A stretch of 64,000 bases of DNA from Gemmatimonadota bacterium (GTDB taxonomy: Bacteria > Gemmatimonadota > Gemmatimonadetes > Palauibacterales > Palauibacteraceae): contig JBDHBD010000009.1 in the NCBI GenBank assembly GCA_039587755.1, positions 62 through 64,061 of the forward strand, written 5' to 3'. Below are positions 2,498 to 20,694 of the stretch, one piece after another (within the stretch, counting starts at the first letter, position 1; every line of letters starts with the position of its first letter). The notes under the pieces were generated by a model, which saw nothing but the letters and a program-made list of their open reading frames with translations, did not search any database and was not told where the DNA came from. The translations under genes and the position numbers were made by a program.

Positions 2498-2574
2498 GTG
2501 ATACCGCACACGCCACTCCTTACAGGTTCCGTTCGCATTCTCCCAGGATCCGCGTGGCGTGCGAGCTGTTAGAC
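2498..2574 (-). repeat. intergenic palindromic element, family 1 (copy A, 77 nt)
   Basis: Read in gene sense: GTCTAAC-AGCT-CGCACGCCAC...(38 nt)...GTGGCGTGTGCG-GTATCAC. The 5' box matches RYYYAAC. The internal imperfect inverted repeat carries a 2-nt bulge. It sits between the stop of 2613-2879 and the SMP-30 leader. Confidence 0.45.
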
Positions 2575-2612
2575 TTGGGCGCACTCACCCGCGGCGGGTA
2601 GCGGTGTCGCGT

Positions 2613-2879
2613 TCAGTCGACGGCGATAATGAAGTGATAGTCTCCCTCGATCACGCCCGCATCCTTGCCCGCCTGCGCGGATTCAGGCGCCGCGATGAAG
2701 TCGTCTGCCTTCCTGCGGTCGTCGACCTGGAACATAAAGAACACCTCGTTCGGGTCGTCCACGCTTCGCCAAAGGCGCTGCAGCTGAAGTCCTGCGGCCC
2801 TGTGCACATCCGCGTGCGAACCGAATACGGCCCACCACGCGTCAAAGTCGGCGACCCTGTTTCTGCAGAGCATGTGCAT
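2613..2879 (-). CDS. small dimeric alpha+beta-barrel (ABM-like) protein
   Basis: The ORF runs 2613-2903. I prefer the ATG at 2879 (MHMLCRNRVADFDAWW..) because GGAGG (2889-2893) sits 9 nt upstream. Length and the pattern ..DDPNEVFFMFQVDD..GVIEGDYHF.. fit the ABM-like fold. Confidence 0.6.
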   Translation of the reverse strand: MHMLCRNRVADFDAWWAVFGSHADVHRAAGLQLQRLWRSVDDPNEVFFMFQVDDRRKADDFIAAPESAQAGKDAGVIEGDYHFIIAVD

Positions 2880-2998
2880 CGGGTTTAACCTCCGTCCCTG
2901 CATGCCTTGCTAGTTACTGCTCTCGACTCTCACCGCAACGACCGATCGAGCCAAGAAGAACTCCGAGCAGCTTGAGGCGACTCGGGAAGATCTCAATG

Positions 2999-3289
2999 TT
3001 ACCCTGAACCGTCATTGCGCTTTCGAATCTCGTCAAAACAGCCCTCACAGATTGCCAAGATGCCGGCGAAGCCTTCCGATCGGTCGTTCCACGCGCCCTC
3101 CTCCGACCGAACTTCCTCACAGGCGTCACACCACGCGGTTTGAAACGGCCAGTCCGGATCCGGTGGCTCGTCGGGCTGGTTGAAACCGACGCTGACACCG
3201 ACCTGGAGATGCTTGCAGATGAAGGTCGGCGAACGGAGCCCGTGCCGCCGACACTCCATCATACTGTCTTTGCTCAATTCATCGCCCAT
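2999..3289 (-). CDS. hypothetical Cys-rich protein (CxxC pairs CDAC and CEGC)
   Basis: 96 aa ORF. Coding-like composition. Stops 2 nt... starts 3 nt after the stop of the next upstream gene (3293). No family recognised. Confidence 0.5.
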   Translation of the reverse strand: MGDELSKDSMMECRRHGLRSPTFICKHLQVGVSVGFNQPDEPPDPDWPFQTAWCDACEEVRSEEGAWNDRSEGFAGILAICEGCFDEIRKRNDGSG

Positions 3290-3292
3290 GAT

Positions 3293-3934
3293 CTACTCGG
3301 AACGGCGCGCCCGACGACGACGAAAAGCTCCTCTCAACAGCCGAACATAAAGGCTCCACCGGGCCGGCTCCTCAGGTTCTTCGCAAAGCGCCTGCTGAGC
3401 TCGATCCAGTGAGTCCTCGATCAGGGCCTCGTGAAGCCAGCGAAAGATCAATGGCCAGGAGACCACCGCCGACCCTTTCGTGTTCATTTCGAGGCTGTGG
3501 CGCAGACATGTGCTCTGGTCCTGGCGTCGAACGTCGAATCCGTGCGTTCCGACGAAACCGGCGGGTGCGGTGAAACGGAAGACGACTCTTCGTCCGGCCA
3601 CATACTCATCAACCACATATCGGACAGGGCCATGTCCGCCCGCCGCCCCGACCCGCAGCGGCCCATCGAACCGCATGCGTGGCCACCGATCATGCGGCCA
3701 GAGCGCATCGTTCTCCGACGCGAGGCCATCGAGAAGCTGACCGACGGCCTCTGCCGGAGCCTGCAGCACACGCTCGTGTACGTTCAGGACCCGCACGGCT
3801 CTCAGCCTACCGTTTCTGGCGTAGAGCGAGGACCGCTCTACGTGCCAGATCGACCCAGATGAGACTCCCGGCGAATACAAACGCCGTTCCATGGCACCGA
3901 CGACAAGCCCGAGTCTTCCCCATGGCCTGTTCAA
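3293..3934 (-). CDS. SRPBCC (START/Bet v1-like) family protein
   Basis: 213 aa ORF. The segment VLNVHERVLQAPAEAVGQLLD..WPHDRWP..RYVVDEYVAGRRVVFRFT..THGFDV is typical of SRPBCC proteins. The TTG start at 3934 overlaps the upstream TGA (TTGA). An internal ATG at 3892 is equally possible. Confidence 0.65.
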   Translation of the reverse strand: MNRPWGRLGLVVGAMERRLYSPGVSSGSIWHVERSSLYARNGRLRAVRVLNVHERVLQAPAEAVGQLLDGLASENDALWPHDRWPRMRFDGPLRVGAAGGHGPVRYVVDEYVAGRRVVFRFTAPAGFVGTHGFDVRRQDQSTCLRHSLEMNTKGSAVVSWPLIFRWLHEALIEDSLDRAQQALCEEPEEPARWSLYVRLLRGAFRRRRARRSE

Positions 3935-4179
3935 TCTCGCCCACTCGACGAGCGGCGGACACAGCCTGGCTCGACCCTGATGTCGCTGCCGAAGCCTCCG
4001 AACCGGCGGTCAATTTCGGCGCCTACATCGAGCACCAGCAGGCCCTGGTCTACAGATACGACCCGGAACGTTTTGCCGAGACAGTGCCGAAAGACCGCCT
4101 GCGTCTCTTCCGGGAGATCATCGATGCCGTCGGGAATGCGGATCAGCCGGACGAGCGATCCGGGCTCGATGTTAGACAC
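3931..4179 (-). CDS. hypothetical protein
   Basis: 82 aa ORF. ATG start. Its stop overlaps the next gene's start. No family recognised. Confidence 0.45.
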   Translation of the reverse strand: MSNIEPGSLVRLIRIPDGIDDLPEETQAVFRHCLGKTFRVVSVDQGLLVLDVGAEIDRRFGGFGSDIRVEPGCVRRSSSGRD

Positions 4180-19105: not shown

Positions 19106-19157
19106 CAGACCAAGTACGCCAGGAGGAGCAGACACGAACATTCGAAAAGTCGCTCTA

Positions 19158-19760
19158 ATGGGCACCCTGCTCACGCTCGGAGTTGCCCTAATGGTCCCCA
19201 GCTCAGCTATGGCCCACTGTGACGGGATGGATTGCCCTGTCGTCAAAGCTGGCCAGAAAGCTCTGGCCAGTGGCGATGTCAACCTCGTACTCATCTGGGT
19301 GCAGAAGGAGGACGAGCAGGAGATTCGACAGGCCTTTGACCGCACGCTGGCGGTCAGAGGGCTCAGCCCGGAGGCTCGAGCGCTCGCGGACATGTACTTC
19401 TTTGAGACCCTCGTCAGGATTCATCGGGAGGGGGAGGGTGCTCCATATACAGGCTTGAAGCCGGCGGGCCGCTACCTCGGACCAGCGATTCCGCTTGCTG
19501 ACGAGGCGTTGACCACGGGAAACGTCGATCCTCTCGTCAAGCTAATCACTGATGAAATGCGTAACGGGCTAACCGAGAGGTTCGGCCGCTCAGTTAACGC
19601 GCGTGACTATTCGACTGAAGATGTCGAGGCCGGGCGCGAGTGCGTGCGCGCATACGTAACGTTCATTCATTACGTCGAACGCGCATATGAGGCCGCAAGC
19701 CAGCCAGTTCTCGGCCACTTTGCGGAGAATCAACACGATTTGGAGAAACACGATAAGTGA
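19158..19760 (+). CDS. secreted hypothetical protein (resembles the DUF6448 family)
   Basis: 200 aa ORF. LLTLGVALMVPSSAMA signal, then HCDGMDCPVV. A strong AGGAGG at 19121 lies 31 nt before this ATG. The in-frame upstream TNIRKVAL would give a normal signal n-region, so the start may be non-canonical (ACG 19134 or ATT 19140). Low-GC region. Confidence 0.6.
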   Translation: MGTLLTLGVALMVPSSAMAHCDGMDCPVVKAGQKALASGDVNLVLIWVQKEDEQEIRQAFDRTLAVRGLSPEARALADMYFFETLVRIHREGEGAPYTGLKPAGRYLGPAIPLADEALTTGNVDPLVKLITDEMRNGLTERFGRSVNARDYSTEDVEAGRECVRAYVTFIHYVERAYEAASQPVLGHFAENQHDLEKHDK

Positions 19761-19878
19761 GAAGGGTACTTGGCGGCCCAACAAGACGATGAGCCTGATG
19801 TCGCCATCCAGGCCCGCAGGATATTGCCGAGCCGTTAGTCAAGGGACGCCGGGTCAGTGGCCGATCAGGTCGCGACTA

Positions 19879-19937
19879 CAGCTAACAGGTCCACTGGCGG
19901 CTCCGGCGCTTCCACCCATCCCTACTATCCGTAGCTG
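19879..19937 (+). repeat. intergenic palindromic element, family 1 (copy D, 59 nt)
   Basis: CAGCTAAC-AGG-TCCACTGGCGGC...GTAGCTG. Termini are complementary apart from one missing T. It shares AACAGGnCCACTGGCGGCTC with copy E. Confidence 0.45.
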
Positions 19938-19945
19938 ACTCGATC

Positions 19946-20410
19946 TTGCTCTCACCTCAAAGAGCTCAGCGGTTCTCGGTGCTGCGAGTCCTTCGGCCAG
20001 ATCGACTTGATTTGGCAGAGGGTGGAAGCATCTTGGTAGTTCCCTGGGGACATACTTCAGATTGTGCCTTCCGACCAATCCTCGAGGCCGACTGGGTCCC
20101 GCCCGGTGATACGGTCGTCTTTCAGTTGACTGCGACGCGTGAGGGACAGGGACGGGTATTTGATGCACACACGCAATTGAATTTGTATCCGCCCTCGTCG
20201 GCTGGTGAGCGGACGTCTCCGGGGCGGATCCATCCCCTCGAATACTTCGACTTCCTTGACTTATTCCCAGGCCCGGAGTCAGAACTCACCGCGCTGGAGA
20301 GAGAGGCGTTGCGTGAACGGGTTCGTGCTTGGAGCGCGGCCAGGGGATTGGCGGAGCTGCTTCCACTGAAGCCCTGGCTCAAACGGCGCAGCCGCGGGGA
20401 ATCCACCTAG
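19946..20410 (+). CDS. hypothetical protein (weak call)
   Basis: 154 aa ORF with only a TTG start. Low GC3. No family recognised. Flanked by repeat elements. Confidence 0.3.
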   Translation: MLSPQRAQRFSVLRVLRPDRLDLAEGGSILVVPWGHTSDCAFRPILEADWVPPGDTVVFQLTATREGQGRVFDAHTQLNLYPPSSAGERTSPGRIHPLEYFDFLDLFPGPESELTALEREALRERVRAWSAARGLAELLPLKPWLKRRSRGEST

Positions 20411-20596
20411 CAAGCGATTGCTGCCGACGGGATTTGCACCTCGCCCCCGGGACATCACGGTCTTGCCTGCCTGTCTCCGGCTCGGCACCCTGGTCCGCAG
20501 CAGAATGGCGTGTCCGTTACGTGGATCCTCGAGAGCGCTGCTGGAGGCCTGGCCCGGGCAGCAGAGCGGCGTCGCGCGCCGATCGAACGCGGCCAT

Positions 20597-20694
20597 CGTA
20601 TAACAGGGCCACTGGCGGCTCGCAGCCTGACTGCGGCTCGCCCAACCCTCGGGCTAACGCCCTTCAGGTTCGCCAGTGGCCGGGACGTTTGCTG
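20597..20694 (+). repeat. intergenic palindromic element, family 1 (copy E, 98 nt) containing a 75-nt three-way-junction-like fold
   Basis: CGTATAAC-AGG-GGCCACTGGCG...(53 nt)...CGCCAGTGGCC-GGGAC-GTTTGCTG. Perfect 11-bp outer inverted repeat (20607-20617 / 20671-20681). Inner hairpins CGCAG/CTGCG and AACC..GGGC-TAAC-GCCC..GGTT. Confidence 0.55.

Follow-up and report, generated by a model that had tools for sequence, protein, structure and literature searches.

Do the short hairpins that recur between small genes of a Gemmatimonadota genome mark integron cassettes, and if so, what enzyme would move them? The question is raised by a stretch of 64,000 nucleotides from a Gemmatimonadota bacterium (contig JBDHBD010000009.1 of assembly GCA_039587755.1, positions 62 to 64,061 of the forward strand), referred to here as the window, in which five intergenic spacers, designated A to E, had been grouped in an initial annotation into one family with conserved termini, variable hairpin cores, and an architecture like that of the integron cassette site attC. 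All five spacers are present in the sequence where that annotation placed them. Three of the five, B, D, and E, are real attC-type recombination sites, and they very probably belong to an integron-like cassette system that is common in Gemmatimonadota and Latescibacterota. The proposed family of five therefore stands as a family of three: a covariance model built from other genomes recognizes B, D, and E, and the attC reading holds for them because related arrays elsewhere carry the junction signature of cassettes, covarying stems, and heads consisting of a recombinase gene and an attI-like site; neither the family nor the attC reading extends to A and C.

The short boxes that had been taken to unite the five spacers occur at chance level, the motif YAACAGG being seen 11 times against 6.5 expected. 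A home-made scan for the loose geometry (AAC, a 9-nt stem with at least 8 pairs at the family spacing, and GTT) gave 62 matches versus 61 in simulated sequence and was dropped as a detector. B, D, and E share a longer sequence, an exact AACAGGNCSACTGGYGG, which has no further exact match in the 64 kb. An exact-pattern scan with TAACAGGNCSACTGGYGGMTC over one genome per species (185,579 species) returned 19 loci, mostly in metagenome-assembled genomes (MAGs) of Gemmatimonadota and Latescibacterota, several of them with multiple same-strand matches; loci fetched from other genomes are designated here by L and a number. The consensus of 14 full copies, about 95 nt long, reads ..CA(C/G)ATAAC AGG N CCACTGGCGG, then two small hairpins, then CGCCAGTGG CCGAGAC GTTATNTGAAATC.

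The covariance model, R1, was built from 14 copies in other genomes, contained no window sequence, and was run on the window with filters off. It scored E at 58.9 bits (E-value 5e-14), B at 27 bits (5e-5 over the whole window, 5e-6 locally), and D at 15.6 bits (0.08, the 5′ half only), and the next matches were noise. A and C went unreported even at an E-value of up to 10 in a 6-kb search, in which the weakest listed match scored 4.7 bits. In 665 kb of related high-GC DNA, consisting of ATP-grasp loci of distant relatives, R1 gave no match at an E-value of 0.01 or below, so the model is specific. A metagenome scan with the ATP-grasp protein, made for cassette differences, had yielded a single close relative on a contig that breaks off within the gene; the other loci, at about 50% identity, carried no sites and were used as the negative control. 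Further copies, for which the initial annotation had suggested searching the genome, are present in other genomes: within the 19 exact-pattern loci, R1 reveals arrays of same-strand copies, six in L024, five in the complete Longimicrobiales chromosome of L011, four in each of L015 and L008, and three each in L018 and L023. They are spaced about 0.3 to 4 kb apart, start to start, mostly at less than 1.2 kb, and all copies of an array lie on one strand. The flanking genes have that same strand in the window and in L107/L108.

Site E (20593–20695, plus strand) is intact. Its R″ flank ends in TAAC at 20601–20604, the L″ arm occupies 20607–20617 and the L′ arm 20671–20681, the 3′ spacer reads GGGAC, and R′ is GTTTGCTG at 20687–20694, with the crossover predicted between G20687 and T20688. 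It folds into a three-way junction (−26.7 kcal/mol for the top strand, −27.3 for the bottom), and of the internal hairpins proposed for all five spacers, only this one is more stable than shuffled sequence (z = −2.1 top, −2.3 bottom). Site B (6945–6997, minus strand) is a short variant with almost no variable loop; its TAAC lies at 6989–6986 and its R′, GTTATCTG, is the reverse complement of 6946–6953, which would put the crossover between G6953 and T6952. A comparable 55-nt short copy in L008 scores 50 bits by R1. D (19875–19937, plus strand) is a remnant, a half site that retains the R″ flank, TAAC at 19883–19886, the L″ arm, and the beginning of hairpin 1 but has no 3′ arm; the GTAGCTG that had been read as its 3′ box is short of one T, reading GTA. 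The first 34 nt of D, from CAGCTAAC, are identical to the L020 copy, after which the sequence is unrelated. Across 44 sites, TAAC and GTTA vary little or not at all, and both E and B have them. The initial annotation noted the poor fit of the 3′ boxes to GTTRRRY but missed the true conserved 3′ end, which is ACGTTAKNYGMMAK. Element A (2498–2574, minus strand) has a fold z of +1.0 and a 3′ end without ACGTTA, and element C (7836–7877, minus strand) has a fold z of −0.3 and boxes that match neither the flank of B nor the tail of the attI-like site F1 described below. No Rfam family was found in the window at gathering thresholds.

Cassette junctions and folding of the sites

In integrons, crossover takes place between the G and TT of the 3′ box, so that the tail behind a site is part of the following cassette, whose 5′ flank it pairs with. 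Arrays were examined for this relation by setting positions 5–14 of the 3′ tail of each site (n) against the reverse-complemented 5′ flank of the following site (n+1). Nineteen consecutive pairs matched at 8.1/10, against 4.3/10 in 1171 nonconsecutive pairs (Mann–Whitney p = 2.6e-12), and the match of a site's tail to its own flank was likewise 4.3/10 (p = 2e-8 versus consecutive pairs). The complementarity reaches about 16 nt, an example in L023 being 16/16, and the rule also links the attI-like site to the first attC in L108, L025, L011, and L111, and, by eye, in L115. Seven sites found in L025, L108, and L111 by the junction rule alone have inner arms that pair at 8 to 9 of 9 positions (chance, 0.03 per AAC..GTT pair), and unrelated inner-arm sequences occur among the junction-defined sites: GGGTTCACG, TAAGTTCAT, GCTGTTGCT, CGGGTGGCG, GGATCTACG, and GCTGGCGCC. 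The central hairpins covary across family copies. The family is a structure-defined site with the geometry of integron cassettes.

A full site of about 95 nt consists of a 5′ flank ending in TAAC, a spacer of 2–5 nt, a stem arm of 9–11 bp, a variable center that is usually two small covarying hairpins, the complementary arm, a spacer of 5–8 nt ending in GAC, and GTTA with a tail of about 12 nt. Sites of the main family have a single unpaired base of variable identity before the 5′ arm, and the other variants have only the asymmetric spacer. Of 27 flank–tail pairs, 26 have a mismatch at position 11 of the outer arm. Among the flank–tail mismatches, 36 are G·T wobbles on the bottom strand only versus 8 on the top strand only (p = 2.5e-5). 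These patterns suggest that one folded strand is the substrate. On the mechanism that we propose, one strand, probably the bottom, would fold and thereby bring the TAAC flank into pairing with the GTTA tail and one arm into pairing with the other; a tyrosine recombinase would then cut between G and TT, and the cut would release or insert a unit running from TT... through the gene to ...G. We infer the single-strand folding, the exact cut site, and the acting enzyme alike.

The sites resemble the attC sites of integrase-less attC clusters (CALIN), a described class (PMC4889954), in several ways: they are imperfect palindromes, their outer (R) boxes pair and so do their inner (L) boxes, AAC and GTT are invariant, the center is variable, and the predicted crossover is at G/TT. 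They resemble them also in lying on the same strand after small genes mostly of unknown function and, in the window, with no nearby integrase. They differ in that the outer box pairs over about 16 nt with the fixed position-11 mismatch instead of over the classical 7 bp, and in that the family consensus is GTTAKNYGMMAK rather than GTTRRRY; the wider 3′ consensus is GTTAKNYG, to which the RRRY part fits only partly. The asymmetric spacer (2–5 vs. 5–8 nt) and at most one bulged base of variable identity stand in place of the conserved extrahelical G and T of canonical sites, which are not evident in the family.

In L013, from another Gemmatimonadota MAG, the segment 1538–3297 (minus strand) holds an orthologue (74%) of a 243-aa core gene of the window, followed by a 31-residue recombinase fragment and the 5′ half of an attC, which points to integron debris near the core region in more than one lineage. 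Insertion sequence (IS) transposases of the IS481-like, IS110-like, and Mutator families lie in or beside the arrays of L008 (3626–4699), L010 (2180–3541), and L019 (3603–4853), and such insertions could explain split or headless arrays.

Recombinases and attI-like sites at the heads of arrays

The tyrosine recombinase gene of L011 (519–1307) lies on the array strand, 250 nt upstream of an attI-like site. Homologs with 56–70% identity have the same layout in each fetched locus: P0008 in L025, P0004 in L026, P0015 in L107–109, P0003 in L110, P0019 in L111–113 (a Tara marine sample), P0016 in a Dehalococcoidia MAG, and P0037 in a Clostridia MAG. Eight distinct loci thus hold a co-oriented recombinase gene followed within about 0.1–0.9 kb by an att-type site; they comprise Gemmatimonadota and probable Gemmatimonadota loci, a marine metagenome contig, the Clostridia MAG, and the Dehalococcoidia MAG, whose first site is attC-like. 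The site after the recombinase gene has the attI-like form RAAC-N6-GTTA in L011, L025, L026, L107–109, L110, L111–113, and L115–116, and in L114 it is instead an attC-like hairpin. Junction-matched cassettes follow in five of the loci (L011, L025, L108, L111, and L115), and R1-type attCs lie in the L011 and L108 arrays, the copy in the L107/L108 array scoring 71 bits. The L107/L108 cargo is typical of cassettes and comprises Abi_C, a Gp49/HTH toxin–antitoxin pair, an acetyltransferase, NUDIX, and SnoaL. The metagenome contigs L108 (4235) and L109 are identical at 3389 of 3396 nt, spanning the recombinase gene, a small open reading frame (ORF), and the attI-like site, up to GTTAGCTGC, beyond which they are unrelated and carry different first cassettes. 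This divergence is what cassette replacement at an attI site would look like.

In 248–1307 of L011, the N-terminal segment of the recombinase is in another frame, and the copy is either a pseudogene or affected by a long-read homopolymer error. Downstream of the recombinase gene in the AT-rich Clostridia locus L115 (8160–8850) come GAGTA/GTTAGGCGAAAGTGA, a small gene, and a site; the flank of this site, CAACTTCGCCTAAC, is complementary to the GTTAGGCGAAAGTGA tail, with the same A/G mismatch at position 11. Contigs carrying the recombinase often end 0.3–0.9 kb downstream of the gene (L114, L115, and L116, as well as L026, L109, and L110); these ends fit repeated sites that break assemblies, and the arrays may be under-represented in MAGs.

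The window holds two arms that the initial annotation overlooked and that resemble the attI-like sites of these loci. The longest inverted repeat in its first 24 kb has arms at 8323–8372 and 18982–19031 (50 nt, 80%), located at the inner ends of two low-GC stretches, and both arms, read outward, end in ...GAAC CGACGA G/TTAT(G/C)TG. The first site, F1 (8321–8372, minus strand), ends in ...CCCGAAC CGACGA G/TTATGTGAAAGC with the G at 8333 and stands at the head of the left stretch; the second, F2 (18982–19036, plus strand), ends in ...GCGAAC CGACGA G/TTATCTGCAATCGCT with the G at 19021 and stands at the head of the right stretch. Their RAAC-N6-GTTA core is common to the sites just downstream of the recombinase genes of L011, L025, L026, L108/L109, L110, and L111, and F2 resembles the site ahead of the first cassette in the Latescibacterota locus L019. 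F1 overlaps a promoter-like GTGACC-16-TATATT (8386–8359, minus strand) pointing into the array, and the homologous TGACG...TATGTT at F2 (18968–18995, plus strand) was recognized by eye. We lean toward reading F1 and F2 as attI-like sites, each with an outward promoter, an arrangement that would suit a cassette promoter adjoining an attI site. The alternative that they are 3′ halves of another attC type was set aside in favor of an attI-like identity, as they have no hairpin and no TAAC partner. In L107, positions 47–745 encode a 72% identical orthologue of the window radical SAM gene that abuts F2 (18100–18741), situated 7 kb upstream of the P0015 recombinase gene and in the opposite orientation, an arrangement that hints at a shared ancestral neighborhood.

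The recombinases match the integron integrase VchIntIA (PDB 2A3V) as well as or better than they match Xer proteins, including its C-terminal SPLDRL tail. The alignment to VchIntIA falls into two pieces, with 23–26 residues where IntI has 65–68, and the NCBIfam integron integrase model TIGR02249 gives 206–240 bits, below its cut-off of 265, in two stretches of which the first ends near profile position 177. These two features indicate that the recombinases are without the IntI-specific insertion. The NCBIfam XerA/'integron integrase' model gives 210–244 bits, and its cut-off of 220 is reached in four of five cases; the XerC and XerD models give about 180–195. The loci thus have the composition of a complete integron (a recombinase, an attI-type site, and cassettes on one strand), with the difference that known integrases carry the IntI insertion and the recombinases here are without some 40 residues at that place. 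The extra IntI domain has been taken as family-defining and as the innovation that enables recombination of folded single strands (PMC4889954, PMC9024848, PMC7790495), and the literature regards it as required for such recombination; Néron et al. tied it to single-strand recombination, and Smyshlyaev et al. said only that, within their integron-like subgroup, the insertion is 'not fully conserved'. Known integrases include some that are co-oriented with their cassettes. In the literature searched, whose coverage is incomplete, we found no description of cassette arrays headed by domain-less recombinases, which may be known elsewhere.

We propose tentatively that the family is a distinct, widespread integron class, in which an IntI/XerA-like integrase without the I2 'additional domain', either lost or never acquired, is encoded on the strand of its cassettes and would read folded sites through an outer arm of about 16 bp with a fixed mismatch instead of through extrahelical bases. 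Integron detection tools require the extra IntI domain, and if the proposal is right, such arrays are being scored by current tools as integrase-less CALINs, many 'orphan' attC clusters have their cognate enzyme alongside, and integron-like systems are commoner than reported in Gemmatimonadota, Latescibacterota, and Clostridia. Were the domain-less recombinases working integrases, recombination of cassettes at folded sites would need no extra domain, and the family would offer a natural system for testing the origin of integrons from Xer-like recombinases. The window on its own is ordinary, since decayed cassette arrays that have no integrase have been described before. The family around it is a variant type of integron, one that merits direct testing.

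Competing explanations

The best of the competing explanations, unlikely in our view although it carries real weight, is that these are classical attC sites served by a canonical IntI encoded elsewhere in the genomes and that the domain-less recombinases are bystanders or belong to other mobile elements. Canonical integrons have been reported in Gemmatimonadota (PMC8618304), the recombinase family is 55–60% identical across distant phyla, as mobile-element genes often are, and its L011 copy is frameshifted. Bystanders are harder to reconcile with the finding that all eight distinct recombinase loci share the co-oriented gene and att-type site, with junction-rule cassettes wherever the sequence continues, and that the near-identical loci L108 and L109 differ exactly at the attI-like site; no canonical IntI was seen in any fetched locus.

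A role for the sites as double-stranded Xer/dif-like targets, as in pdif modules and the integrative mobile elements that exploit Xer (IMEX), recombined by the host Xer proteins without a folded strand, appears very improbable. The recombinases are Xer-like in length and fold and collinear with XerA, and the predicted cut lies at the edge of an arm of about 11 bp. The GTTA tail also loosely resembles the XerD arm of Escherichia coli dif, TTATGTTAAAT, at a mean of 7.3/11, a lead rather than a result. The sites themselves are 55–160 nt long with covarying stems, multicopy folded palindromes that bound mobile genes, whereas Xer acts on 28-bp cores and dif is a single site at the terminus. Complementarity of about 16 nt between flank and tail, with wobbles biased to one strand, has no role in a duplex site, and the copies are in direct rather than alternating orientation. 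The alignment of the SPLDRL tail with VchIntIA and the lead of the integron integrase models over XerC and XerD also set the enzymes apart.

That the five spacers are unrelated, with boxes alike by chance and hairpins that are ordinary terminators or regulatory stems, is true of A and C, which have neither a model score nor a significant fold, and the short boxes and loose geometry are at chance level. As an account of all five it is refuted for E and B by the R1 E-values (5e-14 and 5e-5, with 0.08 for D); tens of related copies exist elsewhere, no T-run terminator coincides with B, D, or E, and we consider it highly improbable. Least probable of all is the possibility, raised in the initial annotation, of dispersed repeats of the repetitive extragenic palindromic (REP) or miniature inverted-repeat transposable element (MITE) kind, spread by transposition with no gene-moving role, since these short, intergenic, hairpin-forming palindromes of variable length, repeated in several phyla though they are, lie on one strand within arrays that begin beside a recombinase gene and a distinct attI-like site, have tails complementary to the flank of the next copy and not to their own, as transposition would not produce, and enclose the same gene in two genomes.

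State of the arrays in the window

Sites of this attC-type family, as they stand in the window, form eroded, integrase-less arrays of the CALIN kind that do not look active. The window is mostly of high GC content, about 0.65–0.68, and its sites lie, as had been described, in two low-GC stretches, with values of 0.585–0.62 (2–8 kb) and 0.63–0.64 (18–22 kb). D and E share a strand and are separated by 0.7 kb; B is isolated, 13 kb away. The two stretches diverge from the housekeeping block between them, each starting at an attI-like site, F1 or F2, that probably carries an outward promoter; the surviving sites are the intact E, the short B, and the half site D, and a SnoaL-like cassette has lost its own site.

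That cassette is a case of reuse. It occupies 20688–21196 (plus strand) after site E, with its gene (Pfam SnoaL_2) at 20801–21193. The protein is 83% identical to that of a gene lying between two attC sites in L024 (1562–2061), and the nucleotide alignment of the region, with 83% identity by column overall, ends 4 nt past the stop codon. L024 goes on from there into its attC; in the window, the end of a convergent VanZ-like gene is reached 6 nt beyond the stop codon. Different genomes therefore share this cassette, whose own site is gone in the window. Upstream, a candidate DUF6448 cassette (19022–19937, plus strand; gene 19158–19760, Pfam DUF6448) is bounded by F2 and remnant D, and the F2 tail matches the reverse complement of the D R″ flank at 12/16, moderately above the 4.3/10 background. 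The D–E interval (19938–20592, plus strand) has no called gene, the public annotations showing none in 19761–20800, the roughly 1 kb that holds D and E; an unannotated ORF at 19946–20410 (154 aa) has no Pfam match, and no upstream tail matching the E flank was found. The interval may be an ORF-less or decayed cassette. In the left stretch, a candidate three-gene cassette runs from F1 to B (6954–8332, minus strand; genes 8296–7937, 7833–7426, and 7413–7030, none with a Pfam match). Agreement between the tail of F1 and the flank of B is limited to the common core GTTATGTG, with 5/10 beyond GTTA, so that this cassette is weakly supported. A scan of the window by the junction rule at 12/16 returned mostly noise, F2–D being the only match in a sensible place.

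Several observations weigh against this explanation. No tyrosine recombinase was found in the 64 kb, as the initial annotation had cautioned in noting the absence of intI, and tblastn with ten family members found no integrase remnants near F1 or F2. The attI-like reading of these two sites is based on their position and a short core; their immediate neighbors are housekeeping genes, not a recombinase gene, and they face away from each other across the housekeeping block. The folds of B and D are no better than those of shuffled sequences. No consecutive sites in the window have a strong junction match (F2–D reaching 12/16 and F1–B the common 8-nt core), so that cassette structure there rests on homology to other arrays, and most genes near the sites are not bounded by recognizable sites. 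About 4.5 kb of the left stretch is without a site recognizable by R1. Gene order is identical in three same-species contigs, with no local polymorphism. The lack of strong junctions, the siteless 4.5 kb, and the lack of gene-order variation together mark the arrays as eroded.

The remainder of the left stretch (2374–6944, minus strand; GC 0.585–0.62) holds about 10 small genes, PNPOx-like, SnoaL-like, YdjM-like, and others of unknown function, with no recognizable attC between them, R1 giving nothing above 7.5 bits there; none had homologs in the fetched arrays. These genes may be old cassettes whose sites have decayed. The stretch as a whole has about 13 small minus-strand genes, nearly all without a Pfam match, and the right stretch, entirely on the plus strand, runs from the DUF6448 gene through the approximately 1 kb without a called gene to the SnoaL-like gene. 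Between the two stretches lies a block of 10.6 kb encoding an ATP-grasp ligase, NifU, proline dehydrogenase, a phosphoribosyltransferase, Fur, fumarase, dipeptidyl peptidase IV, and a radical SAM protein. The idea that this block, flanked by F1 and F2, is a transposon was rejected on its housekeeping content and the conservation of its order in L027. Exact matches to window proteins came from the MAGs GCA_039584515.1, GCA_039590015.1, and GCA_039584055.1 and from the JGI metagenomes 3300041082 and 3300041085, and every close relative recovered afterward was a member of the Gemmatimonadota. Integrons have been reported in this phylum (PMC8618304).

An exact 12-mer, CACCATCCAGTG, occurs at 2406–2417 and 6925–6936 (minus strand) in the loop of a small hairpin located about 30–45 nt upstream of the starts of the SGL-like gene (2373) and the PNPOx-like gene (6892). 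The flanks that follow it are alike at both places (CGAG...CGAGG.TCGCAGC...GGAGG), and at up to one mismatch it has four matches versus 0.26 expected. Among 116 fetched loci it is confined to same-species contigs, and it may be a shared leader or regulatory element.

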